This document shows, piece after piece, positions 15,147 through 21,742 of a stretch of 53,107 bases of DNA. The notes beneath the pieces are model-generated. The model saw nothing but the letters and a program-made list of their open reading frames with translations, made no database searches and was not told the origin of the DNA. A program made the translations under genes and the position numbers. Numbering within the stretch: the first letter of the stretch is position 1; each line of letters begins with the position of its first letter. The DNA is from a virus. Taxonomy: Duplodnaviria; Caudoviricetes. The DNA lies in IMG/VR virus record IMGVR_UViG_3300024246_000006, positions 1 to 53,107 of that record; one strand, given 5' to 3'.

Positions 15147-15653
15147 GTGACGCTGGTCGCATTCACCGTCGACGAAGCCAACGCGTTGAACGCCTCGCAC
15201 CGGTTCAATTGCGGACCTGCAGCGCTTTGCGCTGTGACGGGTCTGCGACCGATCGAGGCGCTTGCCGTCATTCCGCATTTCGCGGAGCGCGGCTATACCA
15301 ATCCGAAAATGATGGCGGCGGCGCTCACGGCGATCGGTGCGTCGTGGCGGCGTACGTGGGAATGCAGCGACGCAATTAAGCCAGAGCACCCGCAATTTCC
15401 TGAGTTTGGATTGGTCCGCGTTCAATGGGATGGCCCTTGGTGCAAGCCAGGCGTACCGGCCGTCGCGCGTTACTTTCATTCCCATTGGATTGCCGTCGAC
15501 GACGCACGAATCTTCGACATCAACTGCCTGTGCGTCGGCGGCTGGGTGCCGTGGCTCGAATGGGATACGCAAGTCGTGCCGTGGCTCCTCAAGGACACCA
15601 AAGCATCCGGTAATTGGTGGCCGACGAAATGTTGGGATGTCGCACGGCCATGA
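15147..15653 (+). CDS. putative papain-like (C39-like) cysteine peptidase
   Basis: NCGPAAL, HWIAV and IFD give Cys-His-Asp in papain-like order. Confidence 0.5.
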   Translation: MTLVAFTVDEANALNASHRFNCGPAALCAVTGLRPIEALAVIPHFAERGYTNPKMMAAALTAIGASWRRTWECSDAIKPEHPQFPEFGLVRVQWDGPWCKPGVPAVARYFHSHWIAVDDARIFDINCLCVGGWVPWLEWDTQVVPWLLKDTKASGNWWPTKCWDVARP

Positions 15654-15937
15654 CCGCGCTCTCCATCTTCGGCGCGACCTTCGTCCTGGTGCTGGCGCTC
15701 GGCCTGCAGAGCCTGAACGTCAACCGCGGTCACTATGCAGCGGCGTTTCTCACGAGTCTCGCGATCAGCTCCGCGCAGCTCGCCATCCTCAAGATCGTGC
15801 CGGCAGCCGAAGCGCCGGTTGATTACCTCGCTTTCATGTCCGGCGGTCCGCTTGGCATCGTCTGCGCGATGTACCTGCACCCGTTGATCGTCCGGCGTTT
15901 GTTCAATCGCAGCACCAACAAGGAGTCAAGTTCATGA
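15650..15937 (+). CDS. small multi-pass membrane protein
   Basis: Three hydrophobic segments; ATGA overlaps. Confidence 0.65.
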   Translation: MTALSIFGATFVLVLALGLQSLNVNRGHYAAAFLTSLAISSAQLAILKIVPAAEAPVDYLAFMSGGPLGIVCAMYLHPLIVRRLFNRSTNKESSS

Positions 15938-16548
15938 ACGAGGCTGTTGCAACACACGTCATCCCAACCGCGCCAGGCACGCCGTTCGCCGGCGGTTTCT
16001 ACGTCGGCCGCATCCGCGTGCTCGACGATGTTTGCGCGCTCATTCTCGCGCCGAAATTCGAAGGCGAACGCGCGCCGGGGATCTGGAACAAGCGCAGCAC
16101 CAATCTCGAAGCAGCCATGAGCTTCTTCGATGGCGAGGCCAATACGTGCGCCATGGCTGGCACCGGCAGCGAGTTGGCCGCCTGGGCGCTCGCGCTTTCG
16201 ATCGGCGGCTTCACCGATTGGCACATCCCGAGCCGCGACGAGCTCGAGCTTTGCTACCGCAACTTGAAGCCCGGCACCGAAACGAACTATTGCTTCCGCG
16301 GCGACAATCCCTCGAGCGTGCCCGTCGGCCATTCGTATCTCCGCGATGCGCCCGCTCAGTGCCAGATCGAAGCATTCCGCGCCGGCGGCGCCGAGGCGTT
16401 CGAAGAAGAATACTACTGGTCATCCACGCAGTACGCCGGCCTCGCCGGCTGTGCCTGGGCGCAGGCTTTCGACGACGGCAGCCAGGACCTCTACCTCAAG
16501 GGCCTCGAGTTCAGGGCCCGAGCTGTCCGCAGATTGATCATTCGCTGA
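15934..16548 (+). CDS. DGR target 1 (DUF1566/CLec-like)
   Basis: GFTDWHIPSRDEL, YWSST and RARAVRR motifs; C-terminal VR1. Confidence 0.9.
   Translation: MNEAVATHVIPTAPGTPFAGGFYVGRIRVLDDVCALILAPKFEGERAPGIWNKRSTNLEAAMSFFDGEANTCAMAGTGSELAAWALALSIGGFTDWHIPSRDELELCYRNLKPGTETNYCFRGDNPSSVPVGHSYLRDAPAQCQIEAFRAGGAEAFEEEYYWSSTQYAGLAGCAWAQAFDDGSQDLYLKGLEFRARAVRRLIIR
16426..16534 (+). repeat. DGR variable repeat VR1
   Basis: 109-nt ungapped match to TR; 18 mismatches at TR adenines and 1 non-A mismatch near the 3' end. Confidence 0.95.
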
Positions 16549-16584
16549 TTCAGTCATTCACCCATTTTTCGCGGAGCGATTTTT

Positions 16585-17082
16585 ATGAACAATGATTTGA
16601 CTGCCCAGCACCTAGCGCAGGAAGTGACCGTCACGCTTCCGCTTGGCGTGGTACTGCGCATCGCCGATCAATCGATCCCGGCCACTTTGGTTTCGGCATC
16701 GGCATTGATCCTGTCCCGGTTCGACGATCTGCCGGCGATCGGCGCCGAGTACGGAGGCGGCATGTTCGCCGGCATCACCGTTCACGAGAACGCGCCGGCA
16801 GCGCTCGTTCTGCTGCCCGGCTCGCGCGAGAACGTCATCTGGAGCGATGCCAAGCAGTGGGCCGGCGAGCAAGGCGGCGAGCTGCCATCGCGTTTTGATC
16901 AGCTTGCGCTCTTCAAGAACCTGAAGCGCGAATTCGCCGGCGAGTGGTATTGGAGCGGCGAACAGTCCGCCGGCACCGCCTACTATGCCTGGGCGCAGGG
17001 TTTCCACTACGGCGACCAGCTCTACTACCGCAAGGACCTCAAGGTCAGGGCCCGAGCTGTCCGCAGATTGGTGATTCGGTAA
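16585..17082 (+). CDS. DGR target 2 (DUF1566/CLec-like)
   Basis: LPSR, YWSG and RARAVRR motifs; C-terminal VR2. Confidence 0.9.
   Translation: MNNDLTAQHLAQEVTVTLPLGVVLRIADQSIPATLVSASALILSRFDDLPAIGAEYGGGMFAGITVHENAPAALVLLPGSRENVIWSDAKQWAGEQGGELPSRFDQLALFKNLKREFAGEWYWSGEQSAGTAYYAWAQGFHYGDQLYYRKDLKVRARAVRRLVIR
16963..17068 (+). repeat. DGR variable repeat VR2
   Basis: 106-nt ungapped match to TR; 14 mismatches at TR adenines and 3 non-A mismatches. Confidence 0.95.
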
Positions 17083-17116
17083 TTCAACCATTCGATCATT
17101 GAAGGGAGTTTTTTTC

Positions 17117-17554
17117 ATGGCCAAGAAATCGACCAAACGTCCAGCAGCAAAACGCGGAGCGCCTGTCTCGCGCGCGCGTAAACCCGCCGCGCCGGCGAAG
17201 GTGCCCAAGATCGGCGCCAAGTACCAGGGCGGCATCTACGCCGGCCTGACGCTCCATGACAACAAGCCGATGGCGCTCATCCTGCTGCCTGGCGAGCGCG
17301 AGAACATCACCTGGGATGATGCCGTAAAGTGGGCCGCAAAATACAAAGGCAAACTGCCATCGCGCGTCGATCAGCTCGTGCTCCGCGAGAATGTCAAAGC
17401 ACAATTCAAGGACGCGACCTATTGGTCGGGAGCTCAGTACGCCGGCAACGACGCCTATGCCTGGGCGCAGCATTTCAACTACGGCACCCAGAACACCTAC
17501 CACAAGGACGACGAGTTCAGGGCCCGAGCCGTCCGCAGATTGCCCATTGAGTAA
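17117..17554 (+). CDS. DGR target 3 (DUF1566/CLec-like, basic N-terminal tail)
   Basis: GGGAG RBS; paralogous to target 2; C-terminal VR3. Confidence 0.9.
   Translation: MAKKSTKRPAAKRGAPVSRARKPAAPAKVPKIGAKYQGGIYAGLTLHDNKPMALILLPGERENITWDDAVKWAAKYKGKLPSRVDQLVLRENVKAQFKDATYWSGAQYAGNDAYAWAQHFNYGTQNTYHKDDEFRARAVRRLPIE
17435..17540 (+). repeat. DGR variable repeat VR3
   Basis: 106-nt ungapped match to TR; 7 mismatches, all at TR adenines. Confidence 0.95.
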
Positions 17555-17581
17555 TTCGCTCATTCGATAATTTCCATCAGC

Positions 17582-17959
17582 ATGGCTCTTCACACTGATT
17601 TGCCCATCTACAAAGTCGGCTACGACCTGCTCGGCGTAGCCGTCGACTCGATCAAGGACATGCCGCGCGACGTCAAGCAGGCGCTCGGCTCCAAGATCCG
17701 CGACGAGTGCATCGACTCGATGCTGCTGATCCGCAAAGCCAATATCGCCGCCGACAAGGAGCCGCACCTTTTGTCCTTGCTCGAGCGGCTGGAGGTTGTG
17801 GAGCTGCTGGTCCGCGTCTCGCGCGACAAACGCTTCATTACCACCAAGCGCTACGCGGCCGTTATCGAGCTGACGCAACGGATCGGAAAACAGGCGAACG
17901 GCTGGCGCAATCAACAACGCCTGCTGCACCCTCGTCAAGGCGAGGATGCCCGTGCGTGA
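17582..17959 (+). CDS. avd: DGR accessory variability determinant (four-helix bundle)
   Basis: LPIYK...MPRDVKQALG...IGKQANGW; lies between the targets and TR/RT. Confidence 0.85.
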   Translation: MALHTDLPIYKVGYDLLGVAVDSIKDMPRDVKQALGSKIRDECIDSMLLIRKANIAADKEPHLLSLLERLEVVELLVRVSRDKRFITTKRYAAVIELTQRIGKQANGWRNQQRLLHPRQGEDARA

Positions 17960-19355
17960 TCATCAATCTGGTCGTGCCGCTGGCCCGCTGTTCGGGGCCA
18001 CCGCCATGCGCGCAACGGATACCTCCGGCCAGCTCGATCTCTTTGGCGGCCGGGACGCGTCCGGCGCAGTTTCCCCGCCGATCGAGGCCGGTCCGGATCT
18101 TCGGCGGGGCGATGTAGATAGCACGATAGGACGCAGTACGCCGGCAACGACGACTATGCCTGGGCGCAGAATTTCAACAACGGCAACCAGAACAACTACC
18201 ACAAGGACAACAAGTTCAGGGCCCGAGCCGTCCGCAGATGGATCTGCCAGTCACCACCATGCTGATTTTTCTTTCGCGGAGTTAGTCGCCGCCTACTTCG
18301 ATTGCCGGCGCACCAAGAGAAACTCCGCCAACGCGCTCGCCTTCGAGCAGGATCTCGAGCGCAATCTCACCGAGCTCTTCGAGGAGCTGGCCGCGCGATC
18401 GTACAAGCCCGGCCGCGCAATCTGCTTCGTCATCACCAGGCCCAAGCCGCGCGAAGTGTGGGCCGCGCAATCCCGCGATCGTGTCGTGCATCATCTGCTC
18501 TACAACCGGATCGCGGCACGCTTCGAGAACGCGTTCATCGCCGATAGCTGCGCCTGTATTCCGGGCCGGGGCACGCTCTATGCAGCGCGCCGGCTCGAGG
18601 CGAAGATCAGGAGCCATACCGAAAACTGGTCGCGCCACGCCTTCTATCTGAAATGCGATCTCGCCAATTTCTTCGTCAGCATCGACAAGCGCATCCTGAG
18701 CGTCCAGCTCGCCGCGCGCGTCACGGAGCCCTTCTGGTCATGGTTGACCGACGTCGTGCTGTTCCACGATCCGCGCGTCGACGTCCGGATGCACGCAACG
18801 CCGGCACTGCTCGCCCTGGTCCCGGCGCATAAGCGGCTTGCCAATCAGCCCGCGCACCTGGGCCTGCCGATCGGCAACCTGTCATCGCAATTCTTCGCCA
18901 ACGTCTATCTCGATGCGCTGGATCAGCATGTCAAGCACCGGCTGCGCGCACGGCACTACGTGCGCTATGTCGATGATTTCATCCTGCTCCACGATTCACC
19001 GCAATGGCTGAACGGGGCGCTCAGTGACATCAGGGAATTTCTGCCGCGCGAGCTCGGCGTTCGATTGAATGAAAGCAAGACGGTCCTGCAGCCGATCGAT
19101 CGCGGCGTCGATTTTGTCGGCCATGTGATCAAGCCGTGGCGCCGGTCGATCCGGCTGCGCACCGTGCGATCGGCGTTCAATCGCCTCGCCGGCATGGCGC
19201 AGGAGCACGTCTACGAGTCCGCGAATAGCTACTTCGGCATGCTGCGCCAGGCGCCGGCGAGCCACCACGAACGGGCGCAGTTCGCGAATCTGCTTCGCCG
19301 GCGTGGACAGGTCGTCGATCGCGCGTTCACCAAGACGTTTCGGAGAATCGCATGA
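17946..19355 (+). CDS. DGR reverse transcriptase (start uncertain)
   Basis: PKPREVWAA, RDRVVHH, LKCDLANFF, GLPIGNLSSQFFANVYL, YVRYVDD and GVDFVG motifs. Confidence 0.95.
   Translation: MPVRDHQSGRAAGPLFGATAMRATDTSGQLDLFGGRDASGAVSPPIEAGPDLRRGDVDSTIGRSTPATTTMPGRRISTTATRTTTTRTTSSGPEPSADGSASHHHADFSFAELVAAYFDCRRTKRNSANALAFEQDLERNLTELFEELAARSYKPGRAICFVITRPKPREVWAAQSRDRVVHHLLYNRIAARFENAFIADSCACIPGRGTLYAARRLEAKIRSHTENWSRHAFYLKCDLANFFVSIDKRILSVQLAARVTEPFWSWLTDVVLFHDPRVDVRMHATPALLALVPAHKRLANQPAHLGLPIGNLSSQFFANVYLDALDQHVKHRLRARHYVRYVDDFILLHDSPQWLNGALSDIREFLPRELGVRLNESKTVLQPIDRGVDFVGHVIKPWRRSIRLRTVRSAFNRLAGMAQEHVYESANSYFGMLRQAPASHHERAQFANLLRRRGQVVDRAFTKTFRRIA
18131..18239 (+). ncRNA. DGR template repeat (TR)
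   Basis: Adenine-rich master copy (7 AAC plus 1 AAT codon in the target frame) between avd and the RT core. Confidence 0.95.
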
Positions 19356-19816
19356 TCCTTGCGGACGTGATGCGTATCTACGACGGCTCAAGCGGCGACG
19401 ACACCAAGGCGCTGTACGCGCGCCTCGAGCAGCTCGGCCCAAACGGGCAGATCGCGCTCAATCTGTTCCGCGCGCAGAAGAACTCCGCGCGCGCCAAGGT
19501 ATATCGCGGAGGCGGCTACCGCGGGAAAGCCTATGACCGCAAGCAATGGGCGATCGACAATCTGGCCGCAATTCTCACCCAGCATGCCGAAGCGTGCGCG
19601 ATCCGTTGGGGCTGGGGAATCGACGACGCTCAGGAATATCACCGAGTCGTTCTTTACATTGATCTGCCGATCGGTCAGGTCAGTTTTCACACAGCGATGC
19701 GCGGCGCCGGACCGGACTACCCGGGTGAATGGGATGGCATCCCCAACGCGTCGATCGGCCGCATCTGCAGTTGGTGCGCACGCCTGCTGTCAGCACAAGC
19801 GGAGGTCCAACCATGA
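19352..19816 (+). CDS. hypothetical phage protein
   Basis: ATGA overlap with the RT. Confidence 0.7.
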   Translation: MILADVMRIYDGSSGDDTKALYARLEQLGPNGQIALNLFRAQKNSARAKVYRGGGYRGKAYDRKQWAIDNLAAILTQHAEACAIRWGWGIDDAQEYHRVVLYIDLPIGQVSFHTAMRGAGPDYPGEWDGIPNASIGRICSWCARLLSAQAEVQP

Positions 19817-19998
19817 AATCCCTCGGCCAGAAAATCACCCAGCTCCAAGGCCTCGTCGGCACCAAAGACGTGACCGAGTGGCAGAGCAACTTCATTGCCA
19901 GCATCGGCCGGCAAAGCGATGGCGGCGCCGATACACAGCGGCTCACCGAGCGCCAGGTCAAGATCATCGAAGAAATCTGGGCAATACACTTCGCGTGA
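19813..19998 (+). CDS. hypothetical phage protein
   Basis: GGAGG RBS, ATGA overlap. Confidence 0.6.
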   Translation: MKSLGQKITQLQGLVGTKDVTEWQSNFIASIGRQSDGGADTQRLTERQVKIIEEIWAIHFA

Positions 19999-20119
19999 AC
20001 TCGCCCTCCCTTCTCCTGCGCATGATCGCGAGACGGATCGCAGCCGATCTCACTGCCGAATTCGCGGGGCATGACATCGAGGTACAATCCCCCGCGGCCG
20101 ACCACCGAAGAGGCGCCCA

Positions 20120-21742
20120 TTGCGCGCAGCAAGCTACGCCCGTTATTCCACTGACAAGCAGCGCGAAACCTCCGTCGAAGACCAGCACCGCCTGAACCGG
20201 CAGTACGCTGCGCGGGAAGGCTGGCAGCTCGTCGCCGAATATTCGGATCGGGAGATCAAGGGCTCCACGCCTGTTGCACTTCGCGCCGGCGGCAAGATGC
20301 TGCTTGCCGACGTCCTGGCCGGGCGCATCGACGTGCTGCTGATCGAGTGCCTCGATCGGCTCTCGCGCGATTCCGTCGAGCAGGAGCAGGTAGTGCGCCG
20401 CTGCGAGCGCAGGGGCTTGCGCATCATCGGCATCGCGGACCACTACGATTCCACCGCCGCCGGCCGGAAGATGACCCGCAAGTTCCGCGGCATCATCAAC
20501 GAGATCTACCTGGACGATCTGCGCGCCAAAGTGCATCGTGGACTGTCCGGCCAGATCGAGCGCGGCTTCTACGCGGGAGGGCTCGCCTACGGCTATCGAT
20601 CCATGCCGGTCGACGTCGACGCGCAGGGCAACGCGCGCGGCCACCGGCTGGAAATCGTGGAGAGTGAAGCCGCGATCGTGCGCGAGATCTTCGCGCGTTT
20701 CGCCAGCGGCGAGAGCTGCCAGCGTATCGCCGCGGCATTGAACGCTCGAGGAGCGAGCGGACCGCGCGGCGGGACCTGGTCGGTCTCCGCGATTTATGGC
20801 ACTCCGCGCAAGGGCACCGGCATTCTCAACAATGAACTCTATACCGGGCGCTATGTATGGAATCGCTCGCAGTGGGTGACCGACCCTGACACCGGGCGCC
20901 GGCAGCGGCTCGAGCGGCCGAGAGCGGAGTGGATGATTGATGAGCGCGCCGAGCTCGCGATCGTCGAGCCGGCGTTATGGGAAAGGGCGAAAGCCGCCCA
21001 GGTGGCCAGGAGCGTTCCGGAGGGCAAACGCAGCAAGGGACGCGCACCCAGCACGTTGCTGGGCGGCCTGATGCGCTGCGGGCTATGCGGCGGGGCGCTG
21101 ATAGCGGTCAATGCCAGGGCATACGGCTGCGGAGCGCGCAAGGATCGCGGGCCGCATGTGTGCGCCGGGTTGCTGGTGCGCCGGGACCTGCTCGAGGATC
21201 GGGTGATCGAAGCGGTGACGGGCCTGCTCTTAGAGCCGCGCTGGCTCGCCGAGCTGCAGGCGATGATAGCGGAGGAGCTTGCCGAATCGAAGCGGGAGGC
21301 CAAGATCGGCGAGGGAGATCGCCGGCGCCGGCGCGGTGAGATCGAGCAGGAAATCGCCAACCTGGTCGACGCCCTGGCCAAGGTCGGCTACTCCGAGGCG
21401 GTCCACCAGCGCCTGGTCACCCTGGAAGCCGAATTGGAGCGCCTACAGCGTGCCGGCTCTGGCAAGGCGCGCATAGTGGTCACCGACCTCGCCGCGCGCT
21501 ACAAGCGGGAAATTGACGCCTTGGCGGTCCTATTACGCTCGGACGTACAAAACGCGCGCCCGGCGCTGCAGGAAGTGCTCGGAGAGGCCAGGTTGACGCC
21601 CGCAACCCCTGACAAAGGGTTCTGGGCCGAGATCGCCCTGCGAGCCGACCGGCTGCTCATTGCCGCAGCCGGCGACGCGTATCTAGGCGGTGGTAGCGGG
21701 GGTCCGCTTTCGACTCCAGCTATCAGGGTTCGAATTATCTGA
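20120..21742 (+). CDS. large serine recombinase (integrase)
   Basis: YARYSTDKQ catalytic Ser, DRLSR, recombinase domain (YGY, ILNNELYTG), Zn ribbon CGLCG...C...C and coiled coil. Confidence 0.92.
   Translation: MRAASYARYSTDKQRETSVEDQHRLNRQYAAREGWQLVAEYSDREIKGSTPVALRAGGKMLLADVLAGRIDVLLIECLDRLSRDSVEQEQVVRRCERRGLRIIGIADHYDSTAAGRKMTRKFRGIINEIYLDDLRAKVHRGLSGQIERGFYAGGLAYGYRSMPVDVDAQGNARGHRLEIVESEAAIVREIFARFASGESCQRIAAALNARGASGPRGGTWSVSAIYGTPRKGTGILNNELYTGRYVWNRSQWVTDPDTGRRQRLERPRAEWMIDERAELAIVEPALWERAKAAQVARSVPEGKRSKGRAPSTLLGGLMRCGLCGGALIAVNARAYGCGARKDRGPHVCAGLLVRRDLLEDRVIEAVTGLLLEPRWLAELQAMIAEELAESKREAKIGEGDRRRRRGEIEQEIANLVDALAKVGYSEAVHQRLVTLEAELERLQRAGSGKARIVVTDLAARYKREIDALAVLLRSDVQNARPALQEVLGEARLTPATPDKGFWAEIALRADRLLIAAAGDAYLGGGSGGPLSTPAIRVRII
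21691..21702. other. candidate attP core inside the integrase 3' end
   Basis: TGGTAGCGGGGG is the reverse complement of CCCCCGCTACCA, a tRNA-Met-like 3' end. Confidence 0.55.

Follow-up and report, generated by a model that had tools for sequence, protein, structure and literature searches.

Target signals of diversity-generating retroelements (DGRs) have so far been defined in one phage only, BPP-1. [quoted passage not shown] However, Wu 2018 reports an inverted repeat in only 127 of 372 DGRs, with the BPP-1-type hairpin missing from about two-thirds, and reasons that where IMH and IMH* are the same, recognition must reach downstream. The 2026 reconstitution work, in its accessible sections, finds a preference of the cDNA for the sense strand when this serves as lagging-strand template, and a stem-loop that is helpful without being strictly required. 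The available text of the 2026 PLoS Genet paper presents target finding and VR entry by the mutagenised cDNA as the main open step of DGR biology.

The stretch of DNA analysed here (the window) covers a complete virus record, 53,107 bases long. Positions 15934-19355 on the + strand are a textbook DGR, and since the window is the whole record, the three VR sites described below are all that it has. Three small target genes lie in tandem and are paralogues. The first (15934-16548, 204 aa) has a C-terminal Lcl_C domain with VR1 (41 bits against a cutoff of 34.9; PHROG 4245), while the second (16585-17082, 165 aa) and third (17117-17554, 145 aa) carry VR2 and VR3, with Lcl_C scores of 20.6 and 28.1 bits that fall below the curated cutoff. 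Differences between TR and VR are concentrated at TR adenines: VR1 (16426-16534) is a 114-nt TR match in which 18 of 20 mismatches are at adenines, and VR2 (16963-17068) and VR3 (17435-17540) are 106-nt matches in which the corresponding numbers are 14 of 17 and 7 of 7. Downstream are avd, the accessory variability determinant (17582-17959, 125 aa; Pfam bAvd at 48.4 bits, where the cutoff is 40; 'Avd protein of DGR' in PHROG, family 3206), the template repeat or TR (approximately 18131-18239), and, adjoining the TR, the reverse transcriptase (18261-19355; Pfam RVT_1, 67.4 bits), which contains LPIGNLSSQ and YVDD. An IGxxxSQ motif is typical of DGR RTs. The RT frame is open from 17946 on the + strand, across the whole TR, and the start at 18261 is thus provisional.

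Each VR ends in a way that resembles the BPP-1 IMH. Past the last A-to-N difference, the VRs are identical to the TR from a GC-rich stretch (16515-16534 in VR1) to CGCAGAT; the uninterrupted identity, GGCCCGAGCYGTCCGCAGAT, is present at all three VRs and the TR and ends at 16534, 17068, and 17540 in the VRs and at 18239 in the TR. Beyond it, the pattern ATTN5ATTN5ATTN5ATT has exactly three matches on the two strands of the 53,107 bases, at 16540, 17074, and 17546, compared to 0.01 expected. A three-unit version is found six times, twice at each VR and never on the minus strand, compared to 0.16 expected in total. A preliminary description of this locus had reported four ATT units at 8-nt spacing after each VR, starting 6 nt past the end of TR homology, and both the spacing and the starting point are borne out. 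Its list of four units per VR was accurate as far as it went but incomplete, as a fifth ATT lies 7 nt upstream of each four-unit array, at 16533, 17067, and 17539. This fifth ATT straddles the end of TR homology, and its last T is the first base unlike the TR, so that VR and TR part company with the third base of this ATT, the first of the row. In full, array 1 spans 16533-16567 (ATT at 16533, 16540, 16548, 16556, and 16564, in steps of 7, 8, 8, and 8), array 2 spans 17067-17101 (17067, 17074, 17082, 17090, and 17098), and array 3 spans 17539-17573 (17539, 17546, 17554, 17562, and 17570), all on the + strand. The stop codons are at 16546, 17080, and 17552, so that three of the four units in each four-unit array overlap the stop or lie past it, and the 3' flank of the TR (18240-18300) has no phased ATT pattern; on both points the preliminary description was correct.

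The three arrays have the ATT cores alone in common. Tandem Repeats Finder reported no repeat in 16400-17700, the units being too degenerate for this program. A slipped-strand structure was considered and dropped because units inside one array match in the core only. Additionally, no Rfam 15 covariance model matched over the arrays. No description of phased repeats after VRs was found in the DGR literature, within passages of freely readable papers.

The preliminary description also stated that no GC hairpin follows any VR, and this holds for all three sites by DNA folding and by searches for inverted repeats and terminator-like sites. The DNA of the window VR flanks folds more weakly than shuffled sequence (z of +0.93, +1.12, and +0.54), whereas the same folding applied to BPP-1 as a control recovered its 8-bp GAAA hairpin. 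The flanks have no inverted repeats, no terminator-like sites are near them, and none of the three has a hairpin of the kind specified in the accessible text of Guo 2011. Like the inverted repeat of that study, the array is VR-specific, lies just 3' of the IMH, and is absent after the TR. Unlike it, the array is made of direct phased repeats without self-complementarity.

To place the arrays in a wider context, 160 related loci were fetched by RT similarity (the best 80 from genomes and the best 80 from viral contigs, hence no random sample; 39-73% RT identity). Of 160 sequences examined by a script, 139 (138 related loci and the window) had a TR together with adenine-biased VRs on the + strand; VRs on the other strand, or with less than 70% of their mismatches at adenines, were discarded. 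Dereplication by Hamming distance, which is not a phylogenetic correction, left 205 VR flanks and 106 TR flanks. Among these best-hit loci, at least three of four period-8 slots hold [A/C]TT in 178 of 205 VR flanks, compared to 1 of 106 TR flanks and 37 of 4100 shuffles. Periods of 5-7 and 9-12 are found in at most 3% of VR flanks, autocorrelation peaks at lags 8 (0.456) and 16 (0.387) appear in VR flanks only, and the unit consensus is Y-M-A-T-T-Y-A-R. Anchoring on CCGCAG, which involves no selection for the pattern, was possible in 162 of 205 VRs and 78 of 106 TRs. The anchored VR flanks have ATT at +1, +8, +16, and +24, and the typical relative therefore has four cores where the window has five. 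The two Ts of each anchored core have frequencies of 0.75-0.91 (0.84-1.47 bits), while the spacers hold 0.03-0.5 bits and, like the region past +30, are near-random. The TR profile departs from the VR profile at +3.

The arrays are also largely confined to VR ends. In 1.53 Mb (the 139 VR-bearing sequences, both strands), 224 of 301 three-unit arrays are at VR ends, for a total of 270 VRs, and the remaining 77 include several that are VR arrays read on the minus strand or that belong to VRs cut off at the end of a contig. Most of the 43 unique VR flanks without a strict array have one relaxed slot or one 7- or 9-nt step; two loci (L059 and L078) are truly without an array. Lineages at 39-52% RT identity have the array, and the clade that carries it is a large one of proteobacterial phages and prophages, with Burkholderia phage Magia, Shewanella phage vB_Sb_QDWS, and Pseudomonas phage phPA-G among its cultured members.

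The register of the array is fixed to the VR end and not to the reading frame. Offsets from the first unit to the stop codon vary (-3, -6, -11, -19, and others), and 355 of 561 related units overlap or lie past the stop. Arrays are also present at remote VRs, before the ribosome-binding site of the next gene, and before GC-rich or terminator-like hairpins. Coding and genomic context do not explain the array. The preliminary description had made its proposal depend on conservation of the pattern at homologous VRs, and the pattern is indeed conserved there: it is VR-specific, phase-locked to the VR end, and kept down to 39% RT identity, which together support a cis-acting role. However, the same comparison limits the idea of a hairpin-free signal. 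This wording fits the sites in the window, but of 174 related arrays 55 have a GC hairpin behind them and 119 do not, and the array can thus not be regarded as a substitute for the hairpin. In 39 of 205 related VR flanks, no more than 10 nt separate the last unit from the start of a GC hairpin. Arrays without a hairpin have slightly more units (3.63 compared to 3.46), a difference that is too weak to use (p=0.036, uncorrected).

Phased repeats were also sought in other DGRs (loci L296-L455, L161, and L166-L245, and phage records L246-L295). Faecalibacterium and Bacteroides phage RTs, when used as queries, yielded few usable loci, and the VR finder identified no VR in crAssphage cr55_1 or Streptococcus phage Javan33. 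No ATT array was found in the BPP-1 clade (68 of the best 80 loci with a VR), which has a conserved CTGTGACCACCTGnnnCTTGAnTAA followed by a hairpin. The BPP-1 VR itself has TGA triplets at steps of 8 and 7, where the TR has TGC, ACC, and TGC, and four of the five mismatches between IMH and IMH* in the 21-bp segment hit the first two TGA triplets, 8 nt apart. In 16 diverse DGRs, autocorrelation of the VR flanks peaks at lags 7 (0.371) and 8 (0.365), against 0.277 +/- 0.019 in shuffles. In an ACA2/VHML-like clade, chains of three or more YTG occur in 30 of 37 VR flanks, 1 of 40 TR flanks, and 10 of 740 shuffles. Similarly, in a Saumur-like clade, chains of three or more CTG occur in 18 of 24 VR flanks but in none of the 23 TR flanks or 480 shuffles; the arrays of Saumur-like gut phages are typically four AACTG units, then a hairpin. 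Overall, three other DGR clades carry analogous arrays phased at 7-8 nt with other cores (CTG/TTG, AACTG).

Several smaller observations were made in the same set. The YTG units of ACA2/VHML-like phages stand at 7-nt steps, BalMu-1 and FP_Lagaffe have phased arrays of AATCTG, and Bacteroides phage F4 has GTTWA. A GC hairpin usually comes directly after the VR-specific arrays of the other clades. The possibility that CTG/TTG cores are primase sites was dropped, as the core in the window is ATT; moreover, a primer laid down directly 3' of the VR would make the single-stranded interval shorter, not longer. A figure legend of the 2026 paper, the part of it that bears on this, reports no effect of DnaG alteration.

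Set beside the BPP-1 IMH, the array in the window stands at the VR 3' end, after a GC-rich stretch that is identical in the TR, and the stretch unlike the TR lies past the last A-to-N change. It thus occupies the position where the discriminator between VR and TR must be. The phased TGA triplets that are altered in IMH* give the 21-bp segment a further likeness to it. The two differ in that IMH and IMH* of BPP-1 are unlike at only 5 of 21 bases whereas the VR-specific part in the window has nothing in common with the TR, and in that the array consists of four to five ATT cores with free spacers, mostly past the stop and with no hairpin after it; its function, moreover, is putative. The preliminary description took the ATT units for a cis-acting element different from the IMH. 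The cis-acting part of that proposal survives, on the strength of conservation, but the separation from the IMH does not, given that the array occupies the VR-specific half of the IMH and that the 21-bp IMH segment of BPP-1 itself has phased triplets. The earlier interpretation is therefore partly supported.

On the basis of these sequence comparisons, the phased ATT units are best read as the VR-specific, distal, direction-setting half of the IMH, a recipient mark that is read by a protein, and we give this reading a probability of roughly 60%. TR and VR would be equivalent up to CGCAGAT, and beyond it the four to five ATT cores carried by the VRs alone, at 7-8-nt steps with free spacers, would act in cis to make the VR, and not the TR, the recipient of adenine-mutagenised cDNA. 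The reader would be a protein that binds in a repeated register, probably with no part played by RNA pairing. It may bind the sense strand while this is exposed and dock the 5' end of the cDNA at the 3' boundary of the VR, with the downstream hairpin as an optional add-on. Homing role, binder, and strand state of the array are in this respect what we infer from the pattern. As a guess, the most likely reader would be the element's own Avd-RT particle, because Avd and the RT are the only proteins common to the related cassettes (an avd homologue was present in 142 of 161 sequences searched). Against Avd as the reader, bAvd is reported to bind nucleic acids without sequence preference. The tandem 7-8-bp operator arrays known as MetJ metboxes and omega heptads, which are bound cooperatively by small repressors, are similar in having two to five direct repeats, 7-8-bp steps, and a short conserved core. 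However, no such protein is encoded in the DGR cassette, and the analogy is one of design only.

The alternative that survives best, although it is unlikely, is passive melting, in which an AT-rich patch in 62% GC DNA would keep the VR 3' end open, much like the stem-loop 'wedge', with no sequence-specific reader. It accords with the composition of the units (5-6 of 8 bases A/T, where the window has a GC of 0.57-0.66), with flanks that fold less well than shuffles, and with the 119 of 174 arrays that lack a hairpin. Additionally, the current model, as given in the available text of PMC12875486 and bioRxiv 2025.08.18.670894, needs an unwound target whose sense strand is the lagging-strand template and has the stem-loop prolong the open state. 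However, melting needs no fixed phase or core, whereas the arrays stay in step with the VR end and keep ATT next to spacers that contain G and C. The CTG and AACTG cores of other clades are not AT-rich in the same way.

A device acting at the level of translation is rather improbable. Because a step of 7-8 nt is not a multiple of three, units bearing TAA, TAG, or TGA could close all three frames after the VR, and so guard against frameshifted variants or set termination and re-initiation. Stops in all three frames are in fact found within 40 nt in 87 of 205 VR flanks (42%), against 11.8% of composition-matched shuffles, and 48.1% of flanks have a stop in both non-coding frames, where a null with permuted columns gives 26.1 +/- 3.0%, although these nulls ignore relatedness between the sequences. 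The cores of other clades also often contain TGA or TAA. This enrichment of out-of-frame stops points to some translation-level selection on the flanks. As an account of the array itself it fares less well: a stop triplet of any kind is present in only 242 of 561 units, the two core Ts (0.82-0.87) are better kept than the stop-forming bases (0.36-0.71), and neither the commonest second units (ATTCA and CTTCA) nor the AACTG arrays contain a stop. Moreover, VR1 of the window leaves one frame open, and arrays are also found before terminator-like hairpins with no gene downstream.

Pairing of the array with the spacer RNA that is still linked to the cDNA 5' end, as proposed for the BPP-1 IMH, concerns the same target stretch and the same question of transfer direction, and is very improbable here. 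In its favour, the accessible text of Naorem 2017 reports that the RNA primer pairs more with IMH than with IMH*, and a BPP-1 control gave -21.3 kcal/mol for IMH and -15.6 kcal/mol for IMH*, the same direction as in that study. In contrast, the spacer-RNA duplex energy in the clade of the window is -16.9 for the array and -16.5 for shuffled arrays (mean z of -0.14, n=205), with z below -2 in 7.3% of the 205 flanks. Three other clades are likewise without signal (mean z of -0.70, +0.23, and -0.21), so that complementarity of the kind in the Naorem 2017 model was found neither in the clade of the window nor in these three. No phased AAT is present anywhere in the window, and a single RNA could not pair with all three of its arrays, which have nothing beyond the ATT cores in common.

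It is also hard to credit that the array has no function of its own and was simply inherited with a duplicated module of Lcl_C and VR. The three window genes are paralogues, and of 10 array-bearing targets tested, 9 have Lcl_C at their end, in some cases with a score under the curated cutoff and in proteins that are otherwise very different; because of this association, the array could travel with the Lcl_C module for a reason other than homing. However, the spacers and the downstream sequence are randomised while the cores persist to 39% RT identity, and unrelated clades with other targets have the same array design with other cores. A Rho-utilisation or RNase E site at the array is given low weight, as the array is phased to the VR end and to no RNA feature.

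A more general reading may also be considered, which is decidedly tentative: phased cores of 3-5 nt at 7-8-nt steps could be a general recipient-site code of DGRs and the real content of the 'IMH', with clade-specific cores (ATT; CTG/TTG, AACTG, TGA) co-evolving with a pentameric Avd-RT particle that reads the exposed sense strand. If true, such a code would explain target finding in the roughly two-thirds of DGRs without a hairpin, and would provide a design rule for retargeting DGR-based mutagenesis tools. More immediately, a conserved, VR-specific phased array is a concrete and mutable candidate for the direction-setting signal in this large proteobacterial clade. It suggests a common design across clades, and could help both to predict remote DGR targets and to engineer targets that need no hairpin.

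Additional features of the locus were noted. Directly 5' of the TR is a match to the Rfam RT-15 RNA (RF03018; 17915-18133, + strand; 150.1 bits, gathering score 82, E of 6e-37), the sole match in 15500-19600 at E <= 1. It extends from the 3' end of avd into the first TR bases, and this curated motif, described as 'RT-associated', thus appears to be the 5' portion of the template RNA of the DGR. In the 3' flank of the TR, the motif CCATGCTGATTTTTCTTT lies at 18257-18274 on the + strand and is present in many related TR flanks, and the anchored TR profile shows it between +21 and +34 at approximately 50% consensus. Its ATG is out of the RT frame, and the motif may be part of the spacer RNA, the primer of cDNA synthesis. 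Two public soil-metagenome runs contain the locus as contigs and gave no information on VR or array variants. Two ORFs lie 3' of the RT on the + strand, at 19352-19816 (overlapping the RT stop as ATGA) and 19533-20195; neither has a Pfam or PHROG match or a homologue in the 160 related loci, and ORFs past the RT are thus unique to the window. Further downstream of the DGR, a large serine recombinase with Resolvase, Recombinase, and zinc-ribbon domains is encoded at 20120-21742 on the + strand, and is probably the phage integrase.
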